This document shows, in pieces, positions 1-14,114 of a stretch of 64,000 nucleotides of DNA (the first letter of the stretch is position 1; every line of letters starts with the position of its first letter). The notes under the pieces were generated by a model. The model was not told the origin of the DNA and ran no database searches. It was given only the letters and a program-made list of their open reading frames with translations. This DNA comes from a virus (taxonomy: Duplodnaviria > Heunggongvirae > Uroviricota > Caudoviricetes), in IMG/VR virus record IMGVR_UViG_3300031998_000029, positions 15,666 through 79,665 of that record; one strand, given 5' to 3'. Made by a program: the position numbers and the translations under genes.

Positions 1-470
1 TCAAGCTCTCCAACGGACTCAGAAGTCTGGAAAATCAGAGGTATATTTATACAAGGTATGCAGACGATTTTCTGGTGTCCTCAAGATTCGATTTTGACTT
101 CAGAAAGATCGAGAAGTACATAGTCGACACGCTCCGGGGTTTCGGAGCGCCGTTCAGCATCAACTCGGAAAAGACAAGATACGGTTCTTCGTCCGGCAAA
201 AATTTCAATCTCGGACTCATGCTCAATAAGGACAACCAGATAACCGTGGGGCACAAGAAGAAAAGACAGTTACAGGCGATGCTCTCTTCGTATGTCATGG
301 ATAAAATGCACGGAAAGAGTTGGGAAAAGAACGACGTACAGGCCATGGAAGGCTATAGAAACTATTACCATATGGTGGAAGGAGAGGTGATAGACAGAAT
401 AGTACAGCATCTGAACGAGAAGTTCAGAGTAGACATCATGCAGATGATAAGAGAAGATTTGAAAGTTTGA
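1..470 (+). CDS. Reverse transcriptase, C-terminal ~155 aa (5' end outside window); group II intron-like / retroelement RT
   Basis: Frame starting nt 3 is open to 470 and reads ...KLSNGLRSLENQRYIYTRYADDFLVSSRFDFDF... (YADD box at nt 60-71), then INSEKT (motif 6), FNLGLML (motif 7, LG) and QAMEGYRNYY resembling the GWxNYY thumb/X-domain motif of group II intron maturases; the ORF-track entry 75..470 is the same frame. Confidence 0.7.
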   Translation, partial: KLSNGLRSLENQRYIYTRYADDFLVSSRFDFDFRKIEKYIVDTLRGFGAPFSINSEKTRYGSSSGKNFNLGLMLNKDNQITVGHKKKRQLQAMLSSYVMDKMHGKSWEKNDVQAMEGYRNYYHMVEGEVIDRIVQHLNEKFRVDIMQMIREDLKV

Positions 471-560
471 CAGATGCACCAATGATGATATTCCTTTTGG
501 AGTATGCTCTTCGCTGTCAGCAAGAGTAACGTAACGGCGGGGAAAAGCCGGATACTGCAG
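471..560 (+). ncRNA. Structured element copy A (shares 5' segment and CTCTY-C-GC-TGWCA-GC-RAGAG hairpin with copies at 1027 and 12291), directly 3' of RT stop
   Basis: cagatgcaccaatgatgat...gctcttcgctgtcagcaagagtaacgtaacgg aligns with copies B/C; hairpin stem shows compensatory change (ctctt/aagag vs ctctc/gagag). Confidence 0.35.
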
Positions 561-1026
561 CAGCAGCATCGCCAGGAACATGTAGACTCTAGCCGGAAAT
601 CCTCAACCCCATCCCGGGAATACCCAAGATTAATACAAGATACCCGGATCCAGCTACCGAATCTCCACCATATCCTGAAAAGAAATAGAGCGACACCCGT
701 CTACCAGGCTCGAACCAGCTCTGCCGAGCGACTCGGCGCCTGGCCTTCCGCCCGCCTCACCAGTTAGACATCACCAAGTTCGATTGAATGCAATGTCAGA
801 CAGAGAAAGGAAGCGACCTTTGATGTATACCAGGAAAACCAGAGACAGATGGGACATACTTACAAACTGGGGTTATGGCTGGGAATGCGAATACAGCGCA
901 TATTCACCCAAAGAAGCCAGACAGACTCTCAGGGACTACAGAGAAAACTCGTGCGGAAGATTTGCCGTTCGCATGGAAAAACATCGCGAGAGAATATTTG
1001 AATAAGTAACGAGAAATTTGATATTA

Positions 1027-1330
1027 ACCTACGATGCAGATTGATTGTCGCAAAACATACATAGCAATCGCTCTCCGCTGACAGCGAGAGTAACGAGATA
1101 ATACGGATTCGCCTTTACTTTCAGATCAGGCAGGCAGGAGCAGGATCAAAGAAAGATCCTGCCCGCCTGCCGATCAGGAAAGTAAGGGCTCTCTCCCGGC
1201 ATAAGCTTTTTATAACGTCGGATTAAGACGACGTTATAAAGCTTTTATGGATCGTAGGACAACACAGATCGAGTAGTGAGTATAAAGCCGTATCGAGTAT
1301 GCTGTGGCGTACAACCCTCGCATAGCGTCC
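1027..1330 (+). ncRNA. Structured ncRNA-like element copy B (ornate, multi-hairpin)
   Basis: acctacgatgcagattgattgt...caatcgctctccgctgacagcgagagtaacgagataatacggattcgcc, then an extended ~25 bp hairpin (gatcaggcaggcagg...cccgcctgccgatc) and a perfect 16 bp hairpin (aagctttttataacgtcg/cgacgttataaagctt), then conserved ttatggatcgtaggacaa; no ORF; homologous to 12291-12530. Confidence 0.45.
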
Positions 1331-1375
1331 GTACAACGCTCCGGGGTCGCAGCAGGAATTAGAGGTCTAGTGTAG

Positions 1376-1436
1376 CGGAAAAGCACGCCCCCGCAGACGG
1401 GGGATGGGTTAGGTTCGACTCCTGACGGTCTCGACC
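1376..1436 (+). ncRNA. tRNA-like 3' module lacking anticodon arm (D-arm-like, 6 bp variable-type hairpin cccccg/cggggg, T-arm ttagg-ttcgact-cctga, ...ACCA end)
   Basis: ggttcgactcc T-loop consensus and 3' gacca; no complementary 5' acceptor strand or 7-nt anticodon loop found. Confidence 0.3.
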
Positions 1437-1614
1437 AAAACGAAAATTCCTTAAAATTACAAAGATATGAAAAAGCAGCGTAAAACTAATGAAAGTATGG
1501 TCAGCAGAGTAGACCGCCGGTGAGATATGTACAGTCAAATCCGGCCGCTGTTCCCGTGGGTGAAAGTCCCACGGCTCGATTTCAATTAATACATAGGTAT
1601 GAGGTATTTGCAAA

Positions 1615-1827
1615 ATGAAAGCAACTGTTTCGCGTGTTTATGTCTTAATAAGACATCTCCCATTCGTAGGGGGACAGATTGAGGGAATCTTTTTGTCAAA
1701 CGACAGCGCTCTGAAGTGGCTGGAAGAACAAGTACAAAACGGCGAATGGTGCGCGTTTGATGCAAAGTATAATACCGAAATTAAAGAATGGGATGTCAAA
1801 GGAGGAAAATATGTTACGTTACGTTGA
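1615..1827 (+). CDS. hypothetical protein
   Basis: ORF track; first gene after long non-coding region; weak RBS. Confidence 0.4.
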   Translation: MKATVSRVYVLIRHLPFVGGQIEGIFLSNDSALKWLEEQVQNGEWCAFDAKYNTEIKEWDVKGGKYVTLR

Positions 1828-2299
1828 TATTCCAGATGGTAGATACAGCGGGTTGTGGTTCGACTCTGACCCCTGGAGGCTTACCGCAGAAGATCAGTGT
1901 TGGGACGCTGAAACCCTCCGTCAATTAAAAGAAGAGTATAATGTTGTATTTTGTACTGATGGAGACGGGGTCACCCCTATAATGGTTTCAAAAGAATGGG
2001 GAATAGTTCTTGGCTGTGAAGACGATGGTACTATCTATTTCAATCAAAAATACGGGCAGCCCGACATGTGTTTTTCTTTGGTGTGGGTAAAGCACTTCAT
2101 GGCAGATCTTAAGGAGGCATATAAGATGGGCGTTAAGGAACTGTGGGAAGAATTTGGAGATGTCCCCATGGATCCGGAAACGGAGTGCATAGAAAGCGAT
2201 TGGCGCAGCTTTCCAAAAGGCACGCACAGAGAAGATATTTGGCACTGGTTTGAAGAAGAGTTTGGGATCGAAGTACATACTCTGATGTACGGAGAATAA
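1811..2299 (+). CDS. hypothetical protein
   Basis: ORF 1757..2299 trimmed to ATG 1811 preceded by GGAGG at 1801-1805. Confidence 0.6.
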   Translation: MLRYVDIPDGRYSGLWFDSDPWRLTAEDQCWDAETLRQLKEEYNVVFCTDGDGVTPIMVSKEWGIVLGCEDDGTIYFNQKYGQPDMCFSLVWVKHFMADLKEAYKMGVKELWEEFGDVPMDPETECIESDWRSFPKGTHREDIWHWFEEEFGIEVHTLMYGE

Positions 2300-2327
2300 A
2301 ACACAACTGTATAGAGAGGAATTGTAT

Positions 2328-2500
2328 ATGACGGTCTATCTCATTTTTGACACAGTCCCCATCCATCGCGAGGTTGTCGGGGTTTTTTCTACCGAGCAGA
2401 AAGCGAGAGAGTGGCTTGACAGAGCATACGATGATTTTGGATGGACATACGGAGAAGTCAGCTCAGCAATTATCGAACCGTGGGTTGTTGACCTCGAATA
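2328..2500 (+). CDS. hypothetical small protein (57 aa)
   Basis: ATG after agagagga RBS; MTVYLIFDTVPIHREVVGVF...; below ORF-track size cutoff. Confidence 0.45.
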
Positions 2501-2536
2501 ATACTTAGAATAAAACATAACTTTGATGAGAAACTT

Positions 2537-2788
2537 ATGAATTATAAGATTGGAGACAAGATATTTTTTATAGGAATCCGTTGCAATATCAGCAAGCTAA
2601 TGGGAGATGTAGGCGACTGTAGTTGGTTTTGCCCAAAACAAGTTCCAGATTGTGAACGATACGTCTGTGAATGCGAGATTGGCAATCAGGCGGCTGCCGA
2701 CAGCTTTAATAATGACGATGACTCTTGTTATGCTTCACGAGCCGAAGCAGAAAGCGCGTTACGGAAGTTGCAACAGAAACATATTTGA
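2537..2788 (+). CDS. Cys-rich small protein (putative Zn-binding)
   Basis: CSWFCPKQVPDCERYVCECE cysteine cluster. Confidence 0.55.
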   Translation: MNYKIGDKIFFIGIRCNISKLMGDVGDCSWFCPKQVPDCERYVCECEIGNQAAADSFNNDDDSCYASRAEAESALRKLQQKHI

Positions 2789-2825
2789 TAATGCCCTATG
2801 ATTTAATAAGGAGATATGACAATGT

Positions 2826-3710
2826 ATGAGTGAGAATCCTTTTGAAGCAATAGCGAACATTTACAATTACGCCGTTGAAGAAGCGGATAAGTTGGGGTAT
2901 GCGAATACATTCAAGAAATGTGCAGAGCTTTTCTTTAAGGCTGTCAATGAAGAGAGCGCCTTGAGAGACAATCCGGTTCACTTTTCGGATGTCGAATATC
3001 TCGACGGATACTTCATTTTTGGCTCCGGCACGAACTCTGTGGTTCACTTCCATATAGATGAATGCCCGGGCTGGAAATTCGGCATTTGGTGGAATGTTCC
3101 AGAAGAAGGAAAATCATCTGTTTCCGGAGATTTCTTCGCTCAGTTTGAGGAAGCTATAGACAAGTTCAAGCCATCTGCATCCGAGATCAACGGGAAAATC
3201 AACATTGATCCTGATGGAAATTTCTCGGCTTCTGTATGGGGAGTATCAAGAGAAATCCGATTTATCCGAGATGAACCGTACCTTTCATTCTGCCGATCTT
3301 ATTGCTTCTGGGATTACAACACCGAGCATCATACACGAGAAGAAGCAGAGCAGGAATACAGAGAATATAGAGAGCGCAAAGATAATGAGTATAATTACAC
3401 AGCTCTGGTAGACGGTAAAATCCTGATGTTCGTGAGGGAAAAAGTTCTTCCAATATTTAAAAACGCAAGGATTGTAGACAGAGGTGATGGTTGGTCTCCA
3501 AGATATGATGTTGTTGCGCCTTTGAAGGACAATACAGACATTGTGAACAAGCGCGGCTGCTACAATTGGTTTGCTGAGGATGACGAAGAAGGTCAAAAGA
3601 TTATGGATGAATTCAATGTATTAATAAAAGAGGGTGAGGATTACGGAGATAAGTACGGGTTCTATTATTCTGCGCCCATCCACAGCAACATTGGGTTCTA
3701 TGAAGAATAA
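2826..3710 (+). CDS. hypothetical protein
   Basis: 294 aa ORF; RBS aaggagat upstream. Confidence 0.65.
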   Translation: MSENPFEAIANIYNYAVEEADKLGYANTFKKCAELFFKAVNEESALRDNPVHFSDVEYLDGYFIFGSGTNSVVHFHIDECPGWKFGIWWNVPEEGKSSVSGDFFAQFEEAIDKFKPSASEINGKINIDPDGNFSASVWGVSREIRFIRDEPYLSFCRSYCFWDYNTEHHTREEAEQEYREYRERKDNEYNYTALVDGKILMFVREKVLPIFKNARIVDRGDGWSPRYDVVAPLKDNTDIVNKRGCYNWFAEDDEEGQKIMDEFNVLIKEGEDYGDKYGFYYSAPIHSNIGFYEE

Positions 3711-3736
3711 AATCAACACTTGATAAGGAGAAAGCA

Positions 3737-4102
3737 ATGCGAAAATACATTGAAGCAGAAGCGGCGTTAAAAGCGGTCTGCAAAGATTGTGATATACGAC
3801 ATCCGTCTGAAAAAGATGAGTGCCCGTACAAGTTCACTGGTTGTATGGCGTTTTATAACGTATACGATATTCCTATTGCTGACGTGCAGGAAGTAAAGCA
3901 CGGAAAGTGGATTGAAAAGAAACACCTGATGCCGCTCGCTTTCGATATTTTTCCCCTTGATTTTGATAATTATGACGAGAAAATACATACTGAGTGGGTG
4001 TCATATTGGCATTGCTCGTTGTGCGACAATGAACAGAGTCGCAACATAAAGCCATCAGACAATTATTGTCCGCATTGCGGCGCAAAGATGGACTTGAAAT
4101 AA
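3737..4102 (+). CDS. Zn-ribbon protein
   Basis: CKDC...CPYKFTGC and C-terminal CSLC...CPHCGAKM. Confidence 0.6.
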   Translation: MRKYIEAEAALKAVCKDCDIRHPSEKDECPYKFTGCMAFYNVYDIPIADVQEVKHGKWIEKKHLMPLAFDIFPLDFDNYDEKIHTEWVSYWHCSLCDNEQSRNIKPSDNYCPHCGAKMDLK

Positions 4103-4130
4103 AACAATTATTGATATAAGAGGTGTAAAA

Positions 4131-4331
4131 ATGAACATCGTTAAACCTGGAAAACCTCAGAACAAAGGAGAGTTTCATTTTATCTGTGAAAAATGTGGGT
4201 GTGAATGGTATGCCGACAGGGGCGATAAAGGATTGGGAATATCGCCGCCCTGCTGCGAGTTTTATGCATACATGAGATGTCCAAATTGTCACTCAGAAAC
4301 TATAGACGAAAATCATAAAATAAAGCGTTGA
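4131..4331 (+). CDS. Zn-ribbon protein
   Basis: CEKCGC...CPNCHSE; RBS agaggtg. Confidence 0.55.
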   Translation: MNIVKPGKPQNKGEFHFICEKCGCEWYADRGDKGLGISPPCCEFYAYMRCPNCHSETIDENHKIKR

Positions 4332-4345
4332 TAGGAGCGATAAAG

Positions 4346-4576
4346 ATGTGCGGCAGCAACAATGGCAGGCATATTTGTGCCACCTGTTCTCATAGCGACG
4401 GATGCATGGCCGGGTTTTTTGATGACGACTGGTTTCCTGCGAATATGGAGAAAGTTATCGATAATCTCGACAATCATAGATATGATGATAAAAGGATAGC
4501 TATGAAAAAATTCCTTATTCAAGAATACCTGTACGACTATGACCGTCGAACATACATTGAAGTCGATGCGAGGTGA
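4346..4576 (+). CDS. hypothetical Cys/His-containing protein
   Basis: ORF 4328..4576 trimmed to ATG 4346 after aggag. Confidence 0.5.
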   Translation: MCGSNNGRHICATCSHSDGCMAGFFDDDWFPANMEKVIDNLDNHRYDDKRIAMKKFLIQEYLYDYDRRTYIEVDAR

Positions 4577-4582
4577 AAGACT

Positions 4583-5011
4583 GTGTTGTATAAAATAGTT
4601 CCTAAAAAACCTATTGCGTCAATCATCGACGCAGAGTCGCCGGACAGCGCAATAGATGCATTCGCTTGGAGTATGGACGACGACATGAATATTTATTTTG
4701 AAGCTGTTCCCGCAACCGACGCGGAAACAAAGGAGTTTGAAGAATCTAAGCAATCTTTTGCTACTCATCTCCGAATCTGCTCCGTCTGCGGGAGGCCGGT
4801 ATATGCCGGCATGACAAACGCGGATGGAAGTTTTTATGTCCACGAGGAATGCTTTGAGACATACATGAACGAGACTTATGGTGCGTGGTTTGAAGTCGAT
4901 GATGACGGCTGCGGCGGCTATTATATGGGTTGCGAACGTGAAGAACCTATCGGCCCCTATGCCACCGGCATCTTCTATACAGAGTGGGAAGACGAGGAGT
5001 TTGAAGAATAA
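4583..5011 (+). CDS. hypothetical protein with CxxC and acidic C-terminus
   Basis: GTG start after gaggtgaaaga; CSVCGRP...HEECFE. Confidence 0.6.
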   Translation: MLYKIVPKKPIASIIDAESPDSAIDAFAWSMDDDMNIYFEAVPATDAETKEFEESKQSFATHLRICSVCGRPVYAGMTNADGSFYVHEECFETYMNETYGAWFEVDDDGCGGYYMGCEREEPIGPYATGIFYTEWEDEEFEE

Positions 5012-5094
5012 TGTATATAAGAAAAACGCGAGACCGCTGAAAGGATGAAATTTGAGAAGAATAAAATCAACTTTTCATAACGGATGGTGTAGAT

Positions 5095-5481
5095 ATGGAG
5101 AATAAGATTGTAATACGACTTCCAAACGGTTATCACCTTGTTGCGGAACAGAATTCAGATCCCAACTATCTCAACGAAATATTTATCGGGATTTTGGACG
5201 AATATGGAGTGTGGCATCAAGACCTCGCCGTCGTAAGATGTGCATACGAAATAGACGATGAATTCCGCGTTCATTGGAAAGACGAGGAATTTGACGTTCT
5301 GGTGTATTCCGACGAGAACAACGAAGATTTCACACATGACTTCACAGTCGGACTGTATCATAAAGAAGATGGCTTAAATATTTGTGGAGAACATGGTTGT
5401 GACGGTTGCTTGTATCAGCATCACAACGATATTGATATATGCAAACAGGAAGCCGCAAGAAAGAATAAAATGACTTTTTGA
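5095..5481 (+). CDS. hypothetical protein
   Basis: ORF track, 128 aa. Confidence 0.6.
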
Positions 5482-5498
5482 TAAGGAGAATATTTATA

Positions 5499-5762
5499 GT
5501 GGCGAAATGTAAAGCATGCGGAAAAGAAATGCTGTCTGCCGTTGGTTGCACGTTCAATTTAATACAGATGGCAGACGGGAAAACAATTAAACGTCATAAG
5601 GTCGGCGACGAGGGGTGGTATGACAAAGGGCAGAGATGCGGTGACTGCGGTGCTTTATATGGTCATTATCATCACCCCGGATGCGACGTGGAGCGTTGCC
5701 CCGTTTGTGGAGGTCAGCTTATTAGTTGCTTTTGTGACATAACGAGCTATGTTAGGAAGTAA
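5499..5762 (+). CDS. Zn-finger protein (multiple CxxC)
   Basis: GTG 5499 after aaggagaa; AKCKACGK...CGDCG...CPVCGG. Confidence 0.55.
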
Positions 5763-5791
5763 AACCAATATTCGATAAGAGGTTTAGAAGG

Positions 5792-6103
5792 ATGATAAAA
5801 GAATTCATAAAGAATAAGTCCAAAATCATCGTCATTTGGGCGAAATACGATGATGCCCATACATACTTTACGGGCGATATTCCGACGAGCGCGGACGCGA
5901 TTGCTTCTATTCACCGTTTCGAGTCGGTCGAATCATTTTCAATGTATTGGCGTGCAATACGCGATTGCCCGGAAGATATGTGGTATTGGGTTCTTGTTGA
6001 AGAGAACGGGTGTCAAACCTGTATCTGTTCAGGAGCTTGCGATAGCGGTGACGAGGATGTCTTTGTTGAGTGTTTCGGCGCGGGATATTTTGAAGAAACA
6101 TAA
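5792..6103 (+). CDS. hypothetical protein
   Basis: ORF track; RBS agaagg. Confidence 0.55.
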   Translation: MIKEFIKNKSKIIVIWAKYDDAHTYFTGDIPTSADAIASIHRFESVESFSMYWRAIRDCPEDMWYWVLVEENGCQTCICSGACDSGDEDVFVECFGAGYFEET

Positions 6104-6130
6104 AACCTTGATTTGATAAAAGGAGAACTG

Positions 6131-6679
6131 ATGAGAAAGTTTATTTGTATTTTTCTAATGACTATGATGATTCTGTCTGTTATGTCTGGGTGTGACTTTG
6201 ACTCTGAGGAATTTGGGTCGGCATCGGATACGATCAGGACAAAGGAAGCAGCAAATATACTGCAATACAACCAGCCAACTCCGACCGATATTTCGTATTC
6301 GCTTGAACGATATAACCTAATACGCAGAACATACTGGGTAAACGGACAGAGGGAGAAAGCAAACTCTCTTCCTTGCGAAATAGAAAAGCCGCTCGGATAT
6401 ATAGTATTATTTTCCGGCAATGTTGTTGTCGGAAATTTTATTGTAGACGGCAAGGTTTCAAGCTTAAACAGTTTCCTTACCCCAGATAGTGAGTATTACT
6501 CCAGCAGTGCTATAAATAAGTGGCTTGCCGATGTAGATGGGTCGTATGGAACAAACGACAGTGGGATTTTCTTCTTTACTCCGGACGGCAAGTATATCGA
6601 ATGGAGCGGTGACTATCTTTATTCTGATATTCCGTTTGTGGTTGAATCGCCGGTTCTCAATATTGGAGATGGTAATTGA
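6131..6679 (+). CDS. putative lipoprotein (signal peptide with lipobox LSVMSGC)
   Basis: ATG 6131 after aaaggagaa; MRKFICIFLMTMMILSVMSGC. Confidence 0.6.
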   Translation: MRKFICIFLMTMMILSVMSGCDFDSEEFGSASDTIRTKEAANILQYNQPTPTDISYSLERYNLIRRTYWVNGQREKANSLPCEIEKPLGYIVLFSGNVVVGNFIVDGKVSSLNSFLTPDSEYYSSSAINKWLADVDGSYGTNDSGIFFFTPDGKYIEWSGDYLYSDIPFVVESPVLNIGDGN

Positions 6680-6680
6680 T

Positions 6681-7073
6681 ATGAAGAAACTCGGAATAGC
6701 AATAATAATAATTTTTGCAGTGATATTAATAGTCGTTTTCCCTATTTATTTTGGTGGAACTCCGACCGGCAGAGCAGCATGGAATAGTTGGTTTCACGAC
6801 GTTCAGAAGGCAGATGACACCACAAGTTACCATACAAAAAAGCAGGTAGAGGACGCTTGCCGTTCTATGATAGCGTCTTATAATTCAGACAGGTTAACAT
6901 ACGAGCAGTATAAAGATAGCGACAATGCCGTCAAGCAGGAATGGGCGGAGCAGGCGAAAATGAGAGCAAATAAAACCGCAAGTACATATAACAACTATAT
7001 TCTTAAAAACAGTTATGTTTGGAAGGGTAATGTTCCGGCAGATATTTATATGGAGCTTTCGTATATTAAATAA
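6681..7073 (+). CDS. membrane-anchored protein (N-terminal TM helix)
   Basis: ATG 6681 MKKLGIAIIIIFAVILIVVFPIYF; listed ORF 6537..7073 has a spurious N-terminal extension. Confidence 0.55.
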   Translation: MKKLGIAIIIIFAVILIVVFPIYFGGTPTGRAAWNSWFHDVQKADDTTSYHTKKQVEDACRSMIASYNSDRLTYEQYKDSDNAVKQEWAEQAKMRANKTASTYNNYILKNSYVWKGNVPADIYMELSYIK

Positions 7074-7098
7074 AACTCCAGATTGACGAGGTGAACAA

Positions 7099-7299
7099 AT
7101 GAAATATTGCGTAACGATTGTGAGAACTGGTTGTGTGTTCGTAAAAGCTAATAGCCCCGAAGAAGCAATGGATATTGCAGACCATCAAATAACTGATACT
7201 GTGAATTGGTCAGATGATTGGAATCCGACAGCCGCAGATGCCATAGAAGATGACATCTTTCCGGATTGTACATTCGTAAGCGAAAAGGCGTTTGAATAA
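7099..7299 (+). CDS. hypothetical small protein
   Basis: ORF track; RBS gaggtg. Confidence 0.45.
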   Translation: MKYCVTIVRTGCVFVKANSPEEAMDIADHQITDTVNWSDDWNPTAADAIEDDIFPDCTFVSEKAFE

Positions 7300-7326
7300 A
7301 ACAGTTTTTGATAAGAAGAGGCAATA

Positions 7327-7515
7327 ATGGATTTTCCAAATATGACTAAAGAAGAACTTTCTAAACAATTATATCAAGAGGTTTCATACTATAATGAGGA
7401 TTTAATGGGCTTATGCCAGATACTTGTAAAACAAGTCCCTCGGAAATATATATATAGAATAATTAGCAAAATGTATAGAGTGAGAAAGACTACTACTGAT
7501 AAAACCGGGATTTAA
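7327..7515 (+). CDS. hypothetical small protein
   Basis: ORF track. Confidence 0.45.
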   Translation: MDFPNMTKEELSKQLYQEVSYYNEDLMGLCQILVKQVPRKYIYRIISKMYRVRKTTTDKTGI

Positions 7516-7526
7516 CGAGGTGTTAA

Positions 7527-7868
7527 ATGAGAACAGGTAATATTCAAGCTAGCTTTACAATGAGTGTACCATATGATAACCCAGATAAAAATGGTGTGTC
7601 ATATAGTTATGAAGCTATCCAGAATGCGCTTTCTTCTGTGATAGTCCCATTACCAATTATAGTTTGTCCTAATAATGGAGATTCAATGATAATTGGAAAT
7701 ACAACTTGTAAGCCATATGCAATTCAGCATAATAAAAAAGAAAACATCATCGAATTCACGGTGGATGGTGTCATATATTTCGGAGGCACGGAATGCTTCG
7801 TGAATGAGATAGACGGTAATAAGACTATTACCGATTTTGAGATTGCAAATTTTGGCTTTTCAGAATAA
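7527..7868 (+). CDS. hypothetical protein
   Basis: ORF track; RBS gaggtg. Confidence 0.5.
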   Translation: MRTGNIQASFTMSVPYDNPDKNGVSYSYEAIQNALSSVIVPLPIIVCPNNGDSMIIGNTTCKPYAIQHNKKENIIEFTVDGVIYFGGTECFVNEIDGNKTITDFEIANFGFSE

Positions 7869-7951
7869 AAACCAATATCTGGCATATGAGAGATATGGGT
7901 GGTGTAAACCAACCGTCTCTTATATAAACAATACATATCAACTATCTAATA

Positions 7952-8137
7952 ATGCAGGAGGATAATATGACTTATGAGGTCTTAATGAGAATCTCGGCAG
8001 CCTACCGCAAAGTCGTCGATGCGGAAAACGAAGAAGAAGCAAAAGATATTGCGTGGGACGAAGGGGACTTTGGCGAAGCGTTTGACATTGACGGAGAGTT
8101 TGTTTCTTGTGTGCCAGTCACGGATACCGAGGTGTAA
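7952..8137 (+). CDS. hypothetical acidic small protein
   Basis: ORF track; RBS caggagga; alternative start ATG 7967. Confidence 0.4.
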   Translation: MQEDNMTYEVLMRISAAYRKVVDAENEEEAKDIAWDEGDFGEAFDIDGEFVSCVPVTDTEV

Positions 8138-8146
8138 TGATAGGTA

Positions 8147-8386
8147 ATGAGCGATAAACATATCAACAAGAAACTCTTTTTAAAAGACCTGAAATGGGTT
8201 CTCCGTCCATGTGTGGGGAGCAACTACGCAGATTGTATTGCGTCTGACGAAGATTTCTTTAACGATGTGATTCGGGATGTGGAAGAGACGAGCGCATGGG
8301 AAGACGAAGGCTGTTATAACGAAGATGATGTCCGTCTCGCGGTAGGCCGGGTTTTAATAGAACGATTAAACATAGCTTACTATTAA
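8147..8386 (+). CDS. hypothetical small protein
   Basis: ORF track. Confidence 0.45.
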   Translation: MSDKHINKKLFLKDLKWVLRPCVGSNYADCIASDEDFFNDVIRDVEETSAWEDEGCYNEDDVRLAVGRVLIERLNIAYY

Positions 8387-8396
8387 GGAGCTGCAT

Positions 8397-8789
8397 ATGA
8401 ACACAAGAATAGATTATTTGTACCGTGACGCAAGCAACTATAAAGCCTATAATTCCGTAGTGTTATCCGGGAAGATGTCCGCAGAAGACGCAGAGCGCAT
8501 TAGTAAGTGCTTGTGCGACGGTACATACTTTATACCGAGAGATGTCGGACTTCCCGAAATTCGAGTCTGCGGCTATCGTACCGATGACGACCACTGCTGG
8601 TTCGAGTGGGAAATAGGCGTCGACAAATATACCGGAGAAGCATTCGGATTTGAGCTTACCGAAGATAAGCCCACGGTGGGCATAAGAGTTTCTGAGCTTG
8701 TAAAAAACTTTGAAAGTGTAAAGAAATGGAACGAGACAAGCTGGATGGAAGACTACGAATATAAGTCATACGACCAGTTTTGTGAGTAA
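8397..8789 (+). CDS. hypothetical protein
   Basis: ORF track; RBS aaggag. Confidence 0.55.
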   Translation: MNTRIDYLYRDASNYKAYNSVVLSGKMSAEDAERISKCLCDGTYFIPRDVGLPEIRVCGYRTDDDHCWFEWEIGVDKYTGEAFGFELTEDKPTVGIRVSELVKNFESVKKWNETSWMEDYEYKSYDQFCE

Positions 8790-8853
8790 GCAATACAATA
8801 AAAGCGACGCAATATTTAAATGGGTGACGTGATAACAAAAAAGGATAAAGGCA

Positions 8854-9090
8854 ATGATTGAGATTGGAATGGTTTATACATTTGACACTCATGGCGGAGA
8901 TTCTACATGGAATGATAGAAGCGGAGAAAATGCGTTGTTGTTCGTCCGCTTACGGAAGATGAAGCAGATCTTTTTGATGTTGGTCAGATGTATCGCATCA
9001 GGTTTAGTGATGGCGTTGAAACGGATGCTTTTGAGGATGAACTTTCGTAAATTAGACAAACTTTCATTGGATGTTTTAAAGGAGTTATGA
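8854..9090 (+). CDS. hypothetical protein
   Basis: ORF track; composition atypical, could be non-coding. Confidence 0.3.
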   Translation: MIEIGMVYTFDTHGGDSTWNDRSGENALLFVRLRKMKQIFLMLVRCIASGLVMALKRMLLRMNFRKLDKLSLDVLKEL

Positions 9091-9091
9091 A

Positions 9092-9268
9092 ATGTATTCA
9101 GAAACAGATATAATTAAAAGTTTGAAAATTGCAAGCAGAGAAATCACGGATGACTGTTCTTGGAGCGGAGCGATTATATTGGCTGAAATAATTCTTGATA
9201 AGTCAGAAGATTCTATTATGGAAATGATCGATGATTTAAAAATAAAATTTGCAGAGGATGATAAATAA
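9092..9268 (+). CDS. hypothetical small protein (58 aa)
   Basis: ATG 9092 after aaaggag; below ORF-track cutoff. Confidence 0.4.
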   Translation: MYSETDIIKSLKIASREITDDCSWSGAIILAEIILDKSEDSIMEMIDDLKIKFAEDDK

Positions 9269-9744
9269 TGCCTACACCCGACTTTGTAAAAGCAAAACTC
9301 GACAAAGTGTACACGGACTCCGTACTGAGAAAAGAAATGTCGCCGAGCTCATGGGCTGGCGACGTCTCGTATATGCCGGTTGTCAGAATGAAAATGACAT
9401 GCGGAGGCGGGATGGGAGGATCTCAATGGTACGAATATATACAACGAGAATCGTTTTTCTCGGCCTGTTCTTTTGTTATAACAGCGGGCGGGAACTCATT
9501 TTCCCACCATCCGACGCTTGTTTCTGCGGCAGGAGACCACGGCATCATTCACGTCAAAACATGGGATAACAAAGATATCATTCTGAATACGGCTTATATG
9601 GTCAAAGCGGATTATTTTACGATAGCAACCGCAAATCTGTACAGCCAAAATCATAATTTTCCAATCGGAGTCTATGCTTTCAGCTATCTGATTCCGGACG
9701 GGCATACATTGACACTGTCTAACGAATGCAGACCGGTGATATAA
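9268..9744 (+). CDS. hypothetical protein
   Basis: ORF track, 158 aa, start overlaps previous stop (ATAATG). Confidence 0.55.
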   Translation: MPTPDFVKAKLDKVYTDSVLRKEMSPSSWAGDVSYMPVVRMKMTCGGGMGGSQWYEYIQRESFFSACSFVITAGGNSFSHHPTLVSAAGDHGIIHVKTWDNKDIILNTAYMVKADYFTIATANLYSQNHNFPIGVYAFSYLIPDGHTLTLSNECRPVI

Positions 9745-9941
9745 AACACATGAAAGAAATCAGGCTTAAATGGGACGATCTTAGCCCCACGGAAAAAGAA
9801 ATTGCAGTTAATAACTACAGAAGTATAAGAACGGTTGAAGAAGAAGCGGAGTGCAGCGAAGAGCGTGCGAGAAACGATACCCCATTTTGCAGGGGTTTTT
9901 ATAAGAACATGACGACCGGAGAGATTACGGTCGATATCTGA
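9726..9941 (+). CDS. hypothetical small protein
   Basis: ORF track; alternative start ATG 9750. Confidence 0.4.
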   Translation: MQTGDIKHMKEIRLKWDDLSPTEKEIAVNNYRSIRTVEEEAECSEERARNDTPFCRGFYKNMTTGEITVDI

Positions 9942-9972
9942 CTTAAGATCGATTATAAAGGAGAGGATATAT

Positions 9973-10224
9973 GTGTATGCAGTAGTGTTTACATACAGTT
10001 TTGACCACGACGTCGCTGTTTACCTTTACAAGACACAGGACGAAGCCGTACAGCATCTGGAAGATTATCTAAAAGAGAGATTCGCGCATGAAGCTACAGA
10101 CCAAAAGACCCACTACGGCATATCATTTGATATAAGCGAAGACGGTCTTTACGGTACATATAAGCAGCATTTTTTAGATCACATCGAAACTACCACGGTT
10201 AGGGTCGGGACGGTATACGATTAA
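9973..10224 (+). CDS. hypothetical protein
   Basis: GTG start after aaggagagga. Confidence 0.5.
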   Translation: MYAVVFTYSFDHDVAVYLYKTQDEAVQHLEDYLKERFAHEATDQKTHYGISFDISEDGLYGTYKQHFLDHIETTTVRVGTVYD

Positions 10225-10253
10225 CTCATGGAAACACAAAAGGAGTAATTAAT

Positions 10254-10823
10254 ATGGAGTTTATATTAAATTTATTGTTTGCAGCTTTGTGTGGAGCTAT
10301 GGTGGGGTTAGTATTCGGCACAGTTTTCTTTGTATATAGTCATCGACCAGCAAAAGATGAATTCGAAAATAACGACAGTAAATCACAAAGCGGCATTTTA
10401 GTAGATATCATGAGAGACGGAAAAAGAAGATTCGTTCCGTTTTACGATATCAAGTCCGGAGATTTCATAGCCTATCTGGGAGTGTTCGCGGGTGATGACG
10501 CGCATCAGAGCGGAGATGCATCATATGACGGATGGCTATTTTATGACAGTAACGGACTCAGTGTGTTTCCCGAAGATCTTGACGGAGACGTCCGCGACGA
10601 CAGAGAAGATAAATGGTTTGGGATAGTCCGGTGGTGTAACGAAGATATAGCATGTAAGATGGTATGCATGGGAATCACCCCTACAAAGAAAAGCATATTA
10701 GAGGTCAGGGATTTTTGCGAAAAGAATAAATCTTTCAATGATACAATGTGCAAAGCCGGTTGGGATATGATCGAAACGGCGATACGGGAATGCGATAAGG
10801 AGCGGAAATATGGAAGATTCTAA
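10254..10823 (+). CDS. membrane protein (N-terminal TM helix)
   Basis: MEFILNLLFAALCGAMVGLVFGTVFFVY; RBS aaggag. Confidence 0.6.
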   Translation: MEFILNLLFAALCGAMVGLVFGTVFFVYSHRPAKDEFENNDSKSQSGILVDIMRDGKRRFVPFYDIKSGDFIAYLGVFAGDDAHQSGDASYDGWLFYDSNGLSVFPEDLDGDVRDDREDKWFGIVRWCNEDIACKMVCMGITPTKKSILEVRDFCEKNKSFNDTMCKAGWDMIETAIRECDKERKYGRF

Positions 10824-10977
10824 TAATAATGTTGAAATAAACGTGTTTGATGTAGAGGAAATACATAATAACTGTACCGTTCAGATTCTCAAGAACAGCG
10901 TGACCGGAGAAACAAGCGTCGGATGGTGGGAAAATGAGTTCCCGCCCGCTGTTATAACAAAAGAACAGGCCGACTAA
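10809..10977 (+). CDS. hypothetical small protein (56 aa)
   Basis: ATG overlapping previous stop; fills gap. Confidence 0.35.
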
Positions 10978-10986
10978 GGAGGATAT

Positions 10987-11538
10987 ATGGGTTACTATGT
11001 GAACGCAGACGGGTTTATAACATTAAAGGAAGGCAAGTACGATAAGGAAATGCTCCTGGCTGTAAGAAATAAACTTAATAAAGCATTTGATGAATATGAC
11101 TGTGGCTCTAACGACGATATCCCTTACTATTCTTTCGGACTGTGCGGAAATTATTATGCAGACGAAGTGTGTAAAACGCTTGATGATGTAGCCGACATGG
11201 TCGGCAATTATATAACTGACGGGGAAGTACAGTTTTCCGGCGAAGATAGGGAATATTGGCGATTCGTATTTAAGAACGGTATGTGGATAGAGGAGCCGGG
11301 ACATGTCGTATATAACGAGGACGACCTTGCGACTCAATCCGACGTGGTTATAGAAGTATGCCCGCATTGCAGCAACGAGGTTGAGATGCGCTGGAATACA
11401 AAAGTTTCCGGGCTCAGAGCCTTTTGCCCCTTCTGCGGAAATAGGCTCATGCTGTGCAGCGAGTGCGACGGGATGATTGTCGGATGCGACTACGACTCCG
11501 ACTCCGATACCTGTAAATTTAGCAGACCCACATACTAA
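10987..11538 (+). CDS. hypothetical protein with C-terminal Zn-ribbon cluster
   Basis: RBS aaggagg; CPHCSNE...CPFCGNRLMLCSECDG. Confidence 0.6.
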   Translation: MGYYVNADGFITLKEGKYDKEMLLAVRNKLNKAFDEYDCGSNDDIPYYSFGLCGNYYADEVCKTLDDVADMVGNYITDGEVQFSGEDREYWRFVFKNGMWIEEPGHVVYNEDDLATQSDVVIEVCPHCSNEVEMRWNTKVSGLRAFCPFCGNRLMLCSECDGMIVGCDYDSDSDTCKFSRPTY

Positions 11539-11679
11539 ATAAATTAACCCGTCCATTGGGTATTGACAACAACGACGGGGTTACAATGTTTCTTTATAAA
11601 AGTCAAGTTCCGAAGCTATTAAAGGGATTCTTTTATACCGATATATAAAAAACACGAAAAAACAGAATGCCGCAGACCC

Positions 11680-11712
11680 ATTGGCGCTCAATGGGTCTGG
11701 GCTATTTTGATG
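11680..11712 (+). terminator. putative hairpin terminator / regulatory stem (cagacccattg-gcgct-caatgggtctg + ggctatttt)
   Basis: 11 bp perfect stem followed by T-rich tract; part of a motif repeated at 20444. Confidence 0.35.
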
Positions 11713-11795
11713 AGATGCTATAGTGTATGGTATTTCAGATAACGCAAAAAAACAGTTGTCTGTTATTTTATTCCAAAAAGAAAGGTGGTGCGACG

Positions 11796-11990
11796 ATGAT
11801 AAAGTCGGAACAGTTTCTCCTCATCATGAACGATTCGCTCGGTGCTGCTGCGGTCGGCGGAGCATTGGAGAACCTGATGCCAAACGCCGGTTTTATTGAC
11901 GACGTAAAGAGGCATATGGACGCCCGCAGAAAGTCTGCGTGCCGCAGAAACAGAGCATTTGCCGGACAAAAAGCACCGGCTCAGGCTTAA
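11796..11990 (+). CDS. hypothetical small protein
   Basis: ATG 11796 after aaaggtggtg; listed ORF 11727..11990 extended. Confidence 0.45.
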   Translation: MIKSEQFLLIMNDSLGAAAVGGALENLMPNAGFIDDVKRHMDARRKSACRRNRAFAGQKAPAQA

Positions 11991-12092
11991 ACACAACAAA
12001 CTGGTTTTCCTTTTAAGAAGCGCCCCGAAACCCATTGGGGCGCAGGGGATCGGGAGATTGTTTACAACCGCAAAGGTTGTAAACGGTTATAT

Positions 12093-12168
12093 CTGAACGT
12101 GGTGCAGTGGGTAGCACTCCTGATTTGGGATCAGGAAGTCGCAGGTTCAAATCCTGCCGTTCAGACCA
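12093..12168 (+). tRNA. tRNA-Pro (anticodon TGG)
   Basis: Cloverleaf by eye: acceptor ctgaacg/cgttcag, D gtgc/gcac, AC stem cctga/tcagg loop tttggga, T gcagg-ttcaaat-cctgc, encoded CCA. Confidence 0.85.
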
Positions 12169-12290
12169 CGGGCGAAGCGGTTACGCACTCTGCCCGGTCA
12201 TGGTCTCCTTTCTCTCCATAGCTCCTCCCGCCGCCGGACTTCCCGCGTGCGGGAGGGGCGCACTTATTTTCTATAAAGATAAAATTTATT

Positions 12291-12530
12291 ACCTACGATG
12301 CAGATTGATTGTTCAGATCACAACAATCGCTCTCCGCTGTCAGCGAGAGCAACAAGATGACACGGATTCGCCCTTGCCCTTCACCTCCGCGTCACTGCCG
12401 GGACGCAGGACGACCCGGCAGGGCGCGAGAGGAGAAGGCTCATACCGGCATAATCAGCGAAAACTCCATTATGGATCGTGGGACAATAAAAGTTCATACT
12501 CGGGCGGCTCGCAAGTCCCCGGGTTTTCAT
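12291..12530 (+). ncRNA. Structured ncRNA-like element copy C (homolog of 1027-1330)
   Basis: acctacgatgcagattgattgt...caatcgctctccgctgtcagcgagagcaacaagatgacacggattcgcc; long imperfect hairpin at the position of copy B's long hairpin but with different sequence (structural covariation); conserved ccggcataa[hairpin]ttatggatcgtgggacaa. Confidence 0.45.
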
Positions 12531-12605
12531 GCTGGCGTGGCTCAAAGGCAGAGCAACGCACTTGTAATGCGTAGGTTGTGGGTTCGATTCCCTCCGCCAG
12601 CTCCA
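12531..12605 (+). tRNA. tRNA-Thr (anticodon TGT)
   Basis: acceptor gctggcg/cgccagc, D gctc/gagc, AC acgca-cttgtaa-tgcgt, T-loop ttcgatt (one T-stem mismatch), CCA encoded. Confidence 0.75.
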
Positions 12606-12694
12606 TTGGCGCGGCGTAAAGGTTGGTTGCCGAGGCGAATATTTATAGCCAAAACTGTGGGAGACTGTTATTCCTGCCAAGTCGCGCCTTATTT

Positions 12695-12770
12695 GCCGAC
12701 ATAGCTCAGCAGGCAGAGCAGGCGCTTCGTAAGCGCAAGATTGCAGGTTCGATTCCTGCTGTCGGCTCCA
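12695..12770 (+). tRNA. tRNA-Thr (anticodon CGT)
   Basis: acceptor gccgaca/tgtcggc, D gctc/gagc, AC ggcgc-ttcgtaa-gcgca, T gcagg-ttcgatt-cctgc, CCA encoded. Confidence 0.8.
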
Positions 12771-12817
12771 ATTTTCAAACACACAGAAACACAAATAAAT
12801 CAGAAAGGAGAATTACA

Positions 12818-13009
12818 ATGGCTTACAGAATTGTACAAAAAGAATTTAACCCAAACACAGGCAAAAACCTCGTCGAAATCGTACTGGACAGCGATTCAGA
12901 TCTTTCGGAAGTCGGTACTGATTATTCCCCGGGCAGCATCGCGGTAGTGGCAGACTCCGGAGCTCCGTCATATATGCTGAATGCTTCAGAAGAATGGAAG
13001 GAGTTATAA
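12818..13009 (+). CDS. hypothetical small protein
   Basis: ATG 12818 after aaaggag; listed ORF 12623..13009 runs through the tRNA. Confidence 0.55.
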   Translation: MAYRIVQKEFNPNTGKNLVEIVLDSDSDLSEVGTDYSPGSIAVVADSGAPSYMLNASEEWKEL

Positions 13010-13010
13010 A

Positions 13011-13430
13011 ATGAGCGTTTTACGAGATATAGTCCGCGCAAAAATATTCGCGTCGGGCGGCGGGGGAGGCGGAAACGCCGTGCTTTCCGGCACGTTTATA
13101 GCGACTCAAAATACCGCATCGCACATAATCGAAGAGCTGATCGGATCGACTGTAACTCATTTTTTGATAACGGCCATGCCGTCACCCAGCGCAACAATCC
13201 AGTCTTCGGCACGTGCTTTCAGCGCCGGGTTTATCAACATGGAGGATACCATGAGCTTCTCTATTGGAACGAGTTCAAGCGGAACATCGGTTGCAGCCAT
13301 TAGAATAAAAGACACCGAGGATGAAAGCTTTTCGTTAGACAAGACGACGGGAGTTTTTAAGGTTGCCACGGGAACCGCCGGACTCGGGTATATTCTTGCC
13401 GGAATAACATATAAGTGGTTTGCTTGGTGA
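13011..13430 (+). CDS. hypothetical Gly/Ser/Thr-rich protein
   Basis: ATG 13011 after ggaaggag; GGGGGG tract. Confidence 0.55.
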   Translation: MSVLRDIVRAKIFASGGGGGGNAVLSGTFIATQNTASHIIEELIGSTVTHFLITAMPSPSATIQSSARAFSAGFINMEDTMSFSIGTSSSGTSVAAIRIKDTEDESFSLDKTTGVFKVATGTAGLGYILAGITYKWFAW

Positions 13431-13440
13431 GGTGGTGTAT

Positions 13441-13695
13441 ATGAGATATTATAAGACCGTTGAAAATGGATATATTACGTCTGTGGGAACAGGTCTCAGC
13501 GGGGAAGAAATCAGTATAACAGAATATAATAACCTGCTTTCCGTGATCGGCAATCGTCCACAGGACACATACGATACATGGTATCGCCTGCGTGAAGACC
13601 TTACATGGGAGTCGTATTCGGCTCCTGCGGCAGACCCCGATCCGGAAATAGACGCTTCAGAAGCGTTCGAGATTATTTTCGGAGGTGCTGAATGA
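13441..13695 (+). CDS. hypothetical protein
   Basis: ATG 13441 after gaggtgg. Confidence 0.5.
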   Translation: MRYYKTVENGYITSVGTGLSGEEISITEYNNLLSVIGNRPQDTYDTWYRLREDLTWESYSAPAADPDPEIDASEAFEIIFGGAE

Positions 13696-14114
13696 GATAC
13701 AGCCATGCTATAAAAATAAGAGATGTGATGCACAAGGCATCCGAATCTCTTTCCGATAACGATGCTTATGAAGCCATGGAGCTTATCGAAGACTGGAAGT
13801 CCGGCATTGAATACCCCGGCGAAAAACGATTAAGATACGGAAATGATCTGTATAAAACAAAGAGCGCACACCGTTCGCAGTCGGATTGGACTCCGGATAT
13901 CGCTACGTCGCTCTACGAAAAAATACCGGAACCGGGTCAGGGAGACAGCCCGAGCAGCCCAATTGCCTACAACGGCAACATGGCGCTCGAAAACGGAAAA
14001 TATTATTCTCAGTTTGAGATAACATATCTGTGTATCCGTGATACCGTAAATCCCGTATATAACAACCTCGCAGACCTTGTAGGTTTGTATGTAGAGGTAG
14101 TAAACCAAAACTAA
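13692..14114 (+). CDS. hypothetical protein
   Basis: ORF track; ATGA overlap with upstream gene. Confidence 0.55.
   Translation: MRYSHAIKIRDVMHKASESLSDNDAYEAMELIEDWKSGIEYPGEKRLRYGNDLYKTKSAHRSQSDWTPDIATSLYEKIPEPGQGDSPSSPIAYNGNMALENGKYYSQFEITYLCIRDTVNPVYNNLADLVGLYVEVVNQN

Follow-up and report, generated by a model that had tools for sequence, protein, structure and literature searches.

What are the three related RNA-like elements that lie downstream of a reverse transcriptase (RT) gene in a large phage genome, and to what do they belong? The stretch examined here, called the window below, is 64,000 nt of a Caudoviricetes virus (IMG/VR record IMGVR_UViG_3300031998_000029, positions 15,666-79,665) and opens within the RT gene. 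The elements, copies A, B and C, are probably paralogous non-coding RNAs (ncRNAs) of the msr-msd type, belonging to a phage-encoded retron in which several templates would serve a single RT. This reading draws on the anatomy of the copies, the family of the RT and the evolution of both in related phages.

The three diverged, structured copies described in an earlier sequence-only reading of this DNA are genuine. A hairpin covariance model of 34 positions, built from ten copies and run without filters over all 64 kb on both strands, gave A, B and C as its sole three strong matches (39, 42 and 40.8 bits), the next-best scores of 14.6 and 13.5 bits being reverse-strand echoes of B and C. The recurrence of this hairpin is far beyond chance. 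It lies in a 26-nt block that occurs three times (starts 506, 1070 and 12329), the occurrence in copy A (506-531) being 88% identical to that of B and 85% to that of C. B and C share more extensive blocks, as had been stated: 1027-1048 is 100% identical to 12291-12312, 1060-1116 is 86% identical to 12319-12375, and both carry ACGGATTCGCC and CCGGCATAA...TTATGGATCGT[A/G]GGACAA. Copy A was said to keep the first two blocks; the hairpin block is indeed retained, while the first is weak and reduced to GATGCA alone. In the pairwise alignment of B and C, segments of unrelated sequence separate the conserved blocks, and the indels measure 5, 8 and 25 nt. These segments are unlike in sequence yet form hairpins in both copies, and whole-element minimum free energy (MFE) z-scores against shuffles reach -10.0 for B and -6.6 for C. 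The extents proposed earlier had to be redrawn. The helices that close the elements end B and C well before 1330 and 12530 (Table 1), the tails that reach these positions showing no conservation, and copy A is much longer than the 471-560 originally assigned to it.

Copies B and C have the same order of elements: a closing strand (a1), a G, CAGAU, a first hairpin (hp1, GAUUG...CAAUC), a second hairpin (hp2, CUCUCCGCUGWCAGCGAGAG), (U/C)AAC, a long imperfect hairpin (H3), a further hairpin (H4), a G and the opposite closing strand (a2). In copy B, a1 (CCUACGAU) pairs with a2 (AUCGUAGG), and copy C is closed by the same helix with one G-U pair. The H3 and H4 region, hereafter the cargo, folds with -0.50 kcal/mol per nt in B and -0.42 in C. 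With DNA parameters, the complementary DNA (cDNA) predicted for each is likewise a stable hairpin structure (z -9.6 for B and -4.5 for C). As described in PMC7736814, a retron ncRNA has inverted repeats at its ends, between one and three short hairpins in the msr, a long stem-loop as msd and a pair of opposing Gs; the long stable msd stem-loop is found in B and C, not in copy A. Copy A is predicted to be closed by pairing of GUUUGACA with UGUCAGAC, and its hp2 stem shows the C-G to T-A double change already reported for it. It occupies the site directly after the RT stop codon, as do comparable copies in related phages.

The gene that ends at the start of the window encodes a retron-type RT. 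The fragment present here matches the PADLOC family RT_II-A (2.4e-22). The complete protein of 384 aa was taken from a shorter contig of the same phage (L002:196-1350), which also provides 195 nt of upstream sequence. Its best 25 PADLOC matches are all retron RT families, headed by RT_II-A (5e-41), and among NCBIfam models it scores 157 bits with retron_St85_RT (7e-46), 72 bits with the group II intron RT and 39 bits with Drt2. The closest solved structures in the PDB are the RTs of retrons Ec83, Ec78, Kva2, Ec86 and Ec67. The catalytic motif YADD is present in all 119 homologs examined. One homolog of 466 aa (L001 9107-10507) carries an insertion before YADD (residues 251-283) that resembles CBM_5_12 with an E-value of 4e-5, just below the Pfam cut-off, and several further RT homologs measure 445-472 aa.

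The RT belongs to a widespread family comprising over 100 closely related protein clusters (63-68% identity), many of them on contigs of about 65-190 kb. A scan of IMG/VR with the exact pattern of the B/C hairpin gave no match, the pattern being too lineage-specific, and loci were retrieved through the RT instead: at least 147 matching stretches exist in IMG/VR, 80 were fetched, and the hairpin model was run on 82 loci (designated L followed by a number). Among GTDB genomes, 36 contigs carry the RT, nearly all of them contigs of metagenome-assembled genomes assigned to gut Clostridia and some to Bacteroidota, a placement of phage contigs that likely reflects mis-binning. GenBank phages include no close relative of the RT; the best match is an unannotated fecal contig with 39% identity and the same upstream synteny.

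In the 82 loci the hairpin model found 205 matches, all on the RT strand. One unit ends 10-30 nt 5' of the RT start codon (seen directly in L001, L005 and L007), one or two lie directly 3' of the RT stop codon, and further units of the B/C type follow 2-10 kb downstream. In all, over 100 related phage contigs show this arrangement. For the phage of the window itself, L002 retains the 3' end of such an RT-upstream unit (...UAG, then AUUACAGUC, 19 nt and ATG). With A, B and C this phage therefore has at least four units.

The units form two classes, old paralogs that each keep their own hallmarks across the family. Class 1 comprises the RT-proximal units, including copy A. Its members have a short hp1, in many lineages UAACAACUUGAGAAG after hp2 (L005 and L007, for example), and a cargo made of an A/C-rich stretch of 200-250 nt and a small conserved hairpin. 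Class 2, to which B and C belong, is recognized by (U/C)AGAU after the branch G, the H3 and H4 cargo, and (U)ACGG or UAUGG before a2; AUACAUA is present in hp1 of most members, including B but not C. Units range from 155 to 374 nt, with medians of 296 nt in class 1 and 246 nt in class 2, and cargo folding energies are -0.26 and -0.37 kcal/mol per nt, respectively. The small hairpin of the class-1 cargo reads GUUGUC-NNN-CAAC, and CCGAG-NNN-CUCGG in copy A (about 745-757). The H3 apex carries a conserved UUAAC-NNCG-GUUAA in L007 (about 16950-16975), L005, L037, L044, L045 and L063, a feature that B and C do not have. Between A and B, where most relatives carry a second class-1 unit, the window has a 60-aa open reading frame (ORF; MYTRKTRDRWDILTNWGYGWECEY...) that is predicted as a gene on each of three independent contigs and has no family match.

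All three helices of the conserved part, namely the a1/a2 helix (P1), hp1 and hp2, covary. A set of 18 non-redundant class-2 units was aligned in fixed blocks (8 nt of a1 plus 12; 14 plus hp2 plus 6; 8 plus the 8 nt of a2), with N at the bulge position for hairpins of 19 nt, an earlier MAFFT alignment having mis-registered the hairpins. Standard pairs fill 97.9% of the 378 cells, compared with 37-53% when the partners are slid by 1-3 columns, and none of 500 shuffles reached any of the observed measures. The pairing percentage of P1 is partly circular and to that extent counts less for a retron, as its partners were picked by complementarity; a separate control on a1/a2, given below, addresses this. 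Changes on both sides affect 16 of the 21 pairs. They include all five pairs of hp1, which was never used for selection and whose stems are as different as GAUUG/CAAUC, AGUUU/AAACU and UCCG/CGGU. For hp2, 107 distinct sequences are 99.8% paired, in an alignment fitted to the model and thus favouring pairing, and seven of eight pairs change on both sides. The search for a1/a2 was constrained to contiguous pairing next to the G, an RNAduplex-style search having been dropped because it over-extended the duplexes. As a control for the choice of P1 partners, the real loci had a median of 9 contiguous pairs, compared with 6 when the downstream sequence was shuffled or reversed, and 64% of them scored 10 or more against 2.5% of the controls. 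The resulting helices of homologs span 8-13 bp and show many compensatory variants. The G after a1 (column 9) and the G before a2 (column 68) are invariant in the 18 units and had not been imposed as columns. Homologs with supporting covariation are thus at hand, and the covarying helices, the B/C indels that are not multiples of three and the lack of a common ORF bear out the earlier view of a selected RNA structure rather than a protein gene.

The units of one genome also evolve together. The hp2 of a class-2 unit differs at 3.27 positions from the class-1 hp2 of the same genome and at 6.00 positions from those of other genomes, and this same-genome likeness holds in 16 of 18 cases (permutation p=2e-4). 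Such a likeness would be expected if one and the same RT had to accommodate every unit of its genome. For instance, the hp2 GCGUUUCGC is found in all three units of L059 and ACCGAUGGU in three of the four units of L060, and loop types contrast between phages, as do GCUGUCAGC and GCCAAAGGC. In the window, B and C combine an identical 5' end of 22 nt and a nearly identical hp2 with unrelated cargo. When the cargo of A, B and C was compared by BLAST with the window and with every locus fetched, it matched only itself, giving neither a target nor a common cargo. With this constant 5' part and unmatched cargo, the units therefore look modular, with a fixed recognition part and an exchangeable cargo. 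A retro-mobility of the kind seen for short interspersed nuclear elements was considered and rejected because B and C show the opposite of what retro-copying predicts: they share the msr, which would not be reverse transcribed, and differ in the msd, which would be.

Class-2 units are in addition associated with tRNA genes. ARAGORN identified five tRNA genes, and copy C does lie between tRNA-Pro and tRNA-Thr as first described (Table 1). The order ncRNA then tRNA-Thr(TGT) recurs in L007, L008, L010, L023 and L037, and a same-strand tRNA, mostly tRNA-Thr(TGT), follows a2 within 5-240 nt in 9 of the 18 class-2 lineages, when about 8% would be expected by chance (these loci hold about one tRNA every 3 kb). 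The adjacency is real and recurs in relatives, but it concerns the B/C class only, and half of the class-2 lineages have no nearby tRNA. Because a tRNA is often so close (5-180 nt downstream), class-2 units may be co-transcribed with it, in which case their 3' end would be released by the 5' processing of the tRNA (RNase P).

Several other structured stretches were observed near the tRNA genes. The segment 12169-12290, from tRNA-Pro to copy C, is G+C-rich and structured (GGGCGAAGCGG...GCCC, then CCUCCCGC...GCGGGAGG) and ends with a hairpin and T-rich tail that resemble a terminator (12247-12273). It has no Rfam match and could be a terminator or a tRNA-trailing element. Another structured-looking stretch (L007 12346-12620), closed by CUCCCGAGAAC...GUUCGGGAG, stands directly 5' of two tRNA genes (12621-12704 and 12715-12796) and matches neither the retron-unit model nor Rfam. 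H4 of copy B with the trailing CUUUUAUGG (1208-1241) was scored as intrinsic-terminator-like; this site is inside the unit, just 5' of a2, and could limit read-through into tRNA-Leu.

Table 1. Coordinates of the retron-like locus and of other features in the window
Feature	Position	Strand	Parts	Basis and remarks
Retron-type RT, C-terminal 155 residues of 384 aa	3-470	+	Stop codon 468-470	YADD; start outside the window
Copy A, class-1 (RT-proximal) retron-like ncRNA	465-801	+	a1 465-472; G473 or homologous G476; hp1 488-505; hp2 507-526; TAAC 527-530; A/C-rich weakly structured cargo 531-793 (about 260 nt); a2 794-801	About 337 nt; covariance model 39 bits; fold
60-aa ORF	823-1005			Between A and B
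Copy B, class-2 retron-like ncRNA	1028-1258	+	a1 1028-1035; G1036; CAGAT linker; hp1 1043-1069 (GATTG...ATACATA...CAATC); hp2 1071-1090; H3, long cargo hairpin, 1112-1188; H4 1200-1249; opposing G1250; a2 1251-1258	Covariance model 42 bits; MFE z -10.0; covariation
tRNA-Leu(CAG)	1362-1433	+		ARAGORN; 104 nt 3' of copy B
tRNA-Pro(TGG)	12093-12168	+		ARAGORN and Rfam; 123 nt 5' of copy C
Copy C, class-2 retron-like ncRNA	12292-12482	+	a1 12292-12299; G12300; hp1 12307-12328; hp2 12330-12349; H3 12378-12438; short H4 12449-12473 (CATAAT/ATTATG); opposing G12474; a2 12475-12482	Covariance model 40.8 bits; MFE z -6.6; covariation
tRNA-Thr(TGT)	12531-12605	+		ARAGORN; 49 nt 3' of copy C
RNA ligase	14172-15275			PF09414 and PHA02142 OB-fold domain
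Large DNA polymerase	34901-38023			
Large serine recombinase	45492-46913			PHROG integrase family, 3e-112

A number of observations weigh against a retron. The RT scores below the curated NCBIfam cut-off (157 against 235 bits), and its signature motifs are variant. Retron RTs are characterized by NAXXH in region X and VTG in region Y (Mestre et al. 2020, PMC7736814), in place of which this protein has DAxKRH (DAIKRH) and ITVG. In the motif alignment D143, A144, K146, R147, H148, I309, T310 and G312 are invariant in 8 homologs; the key H and G are retained, but spacing and order are unlike those of NAXXH and VTG. B and C start 558 nt and 11.8 kb 3' of the RT stop codon and, unlike canonical retron cassettes, are not contiguous with the RT. 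The RT-upstream copy of the family does occupy the canonical retron position, so that the locus as a whole shows the expected contiguity although B and C do not. The closing helix of copy A is irregular and stands 3 nt from the G homologous to the branch G, and little structure is predicted in its long A/C-rich cargo (z -0.6 for 455-1030). The class-2 cargo consists of two hairpins instead of one. A scan for consensus sigma-70 promoters upstream of B and C found none, and Pfam and PHROGs searches of the RT neighbours, in the window and in relatives, and of the small ORFs in 823-11538 recognized no effector.

Could these features indicate a different kind of system? Gut phages are known to carry another RT system, UG27 (class 2 of the UG/Abi lineage), with ncRNA arrays and two accessory proteins, and its concept and ecology fit the present locus: an RT of 380-450 aa in gut phages, several ncRNAs and cDNA hairpins. 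The relatives of our locus, too, retain two conserved domain-less proteins upstream of the RT. Nevertheless YADD is found in all 119 homologs where YSDD is reported for UG27, and the RT scores 157 bits with the retron model against 39 bits with Drt2, which stands for the UG/Abi models. Units of 190-370 nt with a1/a2 and opposing Gs differ from the 135-167 nt of UG27 units, and A, B and C lack the UG27 motif AUCN7UANAG, whose 13 occurrences in the window compare with 10.3 expected. The neighbourhood conserved here includes a ThiF-domain protein, while no domain is detectable in the accessory proteins of UG27. On these grounds, which set UG27 apart by its published description and motifs and not by its sequences, its presence here is improbable. 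We attach a similarly low probability to a role of A, B and C as protein-binding RNAs, whether regulators, scaffolds or decoys, with the RT or another phage protein as partner and the RT-upstream copy as the sole real template. In favour of it, the msr-like module is the conserved part and co-varies with the genome, the cargo is unrelated between copies, and a long distance separates B and C from the RT. Type VI retrons, moreover, are reported to produce little multicopy single-stranded DNA until triggered (10.1101/2025.10.22.683967). However, a1/a2, the opposing Gs and a stable cargo hairpin directly 5' of a2 are kept in every class-2 lineage, and these features argue against mere binding because they are relevant to priming and templating.

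The tRNA association raises the question of whether B and C are independent of the RT, either as leader or processing elements of tRNA transcripts or as tRNA-adjacent phage RNAs similar to ROOL and GOLLD. The same-strand tRNA, mostly tRNA-Thr(TGT), that follows closely in 9 of 18 class-2 lineages speaks for such an origin, but the half of the class-2 units that lack a tRNA would not be accounted for, nor would the class-1 homologs, which have the same hp2, G and a1/a2 and flank the RT. In addition, the hp2 of class-2 units co-varies with RT-proximal copies of the same genome, and no Rfam family is matched. Searches with Rfam 15 at gathering thresholds and at E<=1, over 1-14000 of the window and L007 9500-17300, gave essentially tRNAs only; the other matches at E<=1 were reverse-strand Plastid-ycf2 echoes of tRNAs in the window and one chance long non-coding RNA in L007. 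The kinship with ROOL and GOLLD suggested by the sequence-only reading is thus not supported, nor is one with HEARO, OLE, raiA or group I and II introns: these families, as curated in Rfam, are excluded at E<=1, and the present units (190-340 nt) are much smaller. We consider an RT-independent origin very unlikely. Finally, repeats close to an RT gene might be decaying duplications of coding sequence, remnants of a group II intron or the template and variable repeats of a diversity-generating retroelement (DGR), and long spurious ORFs do overlap copy C. These ORFs traverse tRNA genes, however, and the differences in the helices are compensatory while the indels of 5, 8 and 25 nt break the reading frame. 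No intron RNA was matched, and the RT reaches 72 bits against a maturase RT cut-off of 300. The differences between B and C are not adenine-specific but consist of whole-hairpin replacement and compensatory changes, and the RT is not of the DGR type. The covariation counts effectively refute this group of explanations. The related proposal that the copies are ORF-less derivatives of the RT-bearing retroelement was right in linking them to the RT, as their retron anatomy indicates; they appear to be extra templates of the enzyme, not decayed copies of a mobile element.

The genes around the locus provide a context for the putative retron. Upstream of the ncRNA and RT, relatives carry a block encoding a protein of 446-491 aa, a protein of 254-340 aa and a ThiF-family (E1-like) protein of about 225 aa (L005 4777-8453, L007 5981-9640, L087 6823-9610, L125 2590-5689). 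The block is kept down to 38-41% RT identity. In L007, the single relative searched for domains, the first two proteins match nothing in Pfam or PHROGs, and the three genes could be an accessory or effector set or merely conserved synteny. A gene for the anti-Thoeris protein Tad4 (PF25186) is found in L007 (2827-3165) and L008 (2826-3164), and a run of NAD-salvage genes (nicotinamidase-like, PRPP-transferase, NAMPT/NAPRTase and NAD synthase) lies at most 10 kb from the RT in L008 (15122-18931) and L005 (17468-21070). The locus sits in an anti-defence-rich part of the relatives' genomes. RNA-repair functions are also encoded nearby: an RNA ligase follows the tRNA cluster of the window by 1.4 kb, and in L005 a protein with the HAD_SAK_2 'Swiss Army Knife RNA repair' domain (11802-12458) is found directly 3' of the RT-proximal ncRNAs, so that one region holds RNA-repair genes, tRNAs and retron units. 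Elsewhere the window encodes a DnaB-like helicase, a large DNA polymerase, NrdD, tail proteins and a large serine recombinase of an integrase family (Table 1). Given the recombinase and two GTDB matches that lie on contigs of 244-359 kb, the phage could be temperate, unless these assemblies are chimeric.

If the copies are retron ncRNAs, their use can be envisaged as follows. The RT would recognize the conserved 5' (msr) module, composed of the branch G and linker, hp1, hp2 and (A)GTAAC, while the a1/a2 helix would set the 3' end of the cargo beside the invariant G. Synthesis would be primed from the 2'-OH of this G and the variable 3' (msd) cargo copied, the product being a small single-stranded DNA that folds into hairpins. 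In this phage at least four templates would share the enzyme, one upstream of the RT and outside the window in addition to A, B and C, with B and C acting in trans from 0.56 and 11.8 kb. The cargo of B and C is unrelated, and each would therefore yield a different DNA. As to their purpose, our best guess is that the DNA hairpins serve phage-side counter-defence or inter-phage competition, a role favoured because no toxin-like effector is recognizable and because the locus of the relatives lies among anti-defence genes. A more specific scenario, which we put forward only tentatively and consider rather doubtful, is a toxin-free retron that supplies a cocktail of DNA hairpins from four to six templates as an offensive tool during infection. 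The hairpins might serve as decoys, so that host retron toxins or nucleases sensing hairpins or single-stranded DNA stay quiet, or as weapons against competing phages, and tRNA-processing enzymes would release the distal units from transcripts shared with tRNAs.

In the current understanding, a retron unites a single RT, a single ncRNA and a toxin and protects bacteria from phages. In the present case the carriers of a retron-clade RT are large phages of gut and rumen that form a widespread family, and the RT has several probable templates in two classes and no recognizable toxin, some of these templates being kilobases from the RT and tied to tRNA genes. The RNA family is new to Rfam. If the templates are copied, retron RTs would be natural multi-template DNA factories acting in trans, and a phage-side role of retrons would become a directly testable case, beside the UG27 arrays. 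The constant msr and exchangeable cargo would also offer a natural design for multiplexed DNA production in cells.

A full-text literature search retrieved no paper on a phage retron with several ncRNAs, but individual features can be compared with those of known systems. ROOL and GOLLD are non-coding and phage-borne and are often found near tRNA genes; they differ from the present units, which are three to four times smaller, are linked to an RT and give no match with their covariance models at E<=1. Retrons Ec67 and Ec73 (retronphage phiR73) are reportedly borne by E. coli prophages, with a single msr-msd cassette 5' of the RT, and retrons of this type are said to have an effector domain or gene and to function in host defence. 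They share with our locus the presence of a retron on a phage or satellite genome and differ from it in that the templates are dispersed here and no effector is recognizable. Most of the studied E. coli retrons are in fact prophage-related (PMC7736814). Retron-like RTs have also been described in lytic Staphylococcus jumbo phages (bioRxiv 10.1101/2020.12.14.422802), which are likewise large phages with a non-DGR enzyme whose role is not established. That RT is 501 aa long with an extra N-terminal domain, is 23% identical to the present one, and no ncRNA was described for it.

UG27, first noted in PMC9226505, consists of gut-phage RTs with variable arrays of ncRNA units of about 150 nt, whose central hairpins give rise to cDNA hairpins of 50-100 nt (bioRxiv 10.64898/2026.09.22.753630). 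Both systems have a phage RT of about 380-450 aa and several ncRNA units that are structurally conserved and diverse in sequence; unit hairpins template short cDNA hairpins in UG27 and are predicted to do so here. Gut Bacillota and Bacteroidota are hosts in both cases, and no association with defence is reported. UG27 is distinguished by its UG/Abi class 2 lineage, the YSDD motif, tandem units with a pseudoknot, the motifs AUCN7UANAG and UUYA, and the requirement for two accessory proteins; its sequence hallmarks YSDD and AUCN7UANAG were not found at this locus. With bacterial retrons the locus has in common the RT clade (the closest profiles being type II-A / St85-Sen2 and type I-A, Ec78 and Ec83), terminal inverted repeats with a G at the a1 end and an opposing G before a2, short msr hairpins followed by a long msd hairpin, and, in relatives, one ncRNA directly 5' of the RT. 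It departs from them in having four to six ncRNAs per RT instead of one, with copies on the 3' side of the RT as well and at distances of up to 10 kb or more, in the two structural classes, the lack of a recognizable effector or toxin and the variant RT motifs (DAxKRH, ITVG), and in its carrier, a phage of about 115 kb with its own replication genes. One phage enzyme with at least four scattered, putative template RNAs is an unusual layout for a retron, and one that parallels the UG27 arrays described in 2026.

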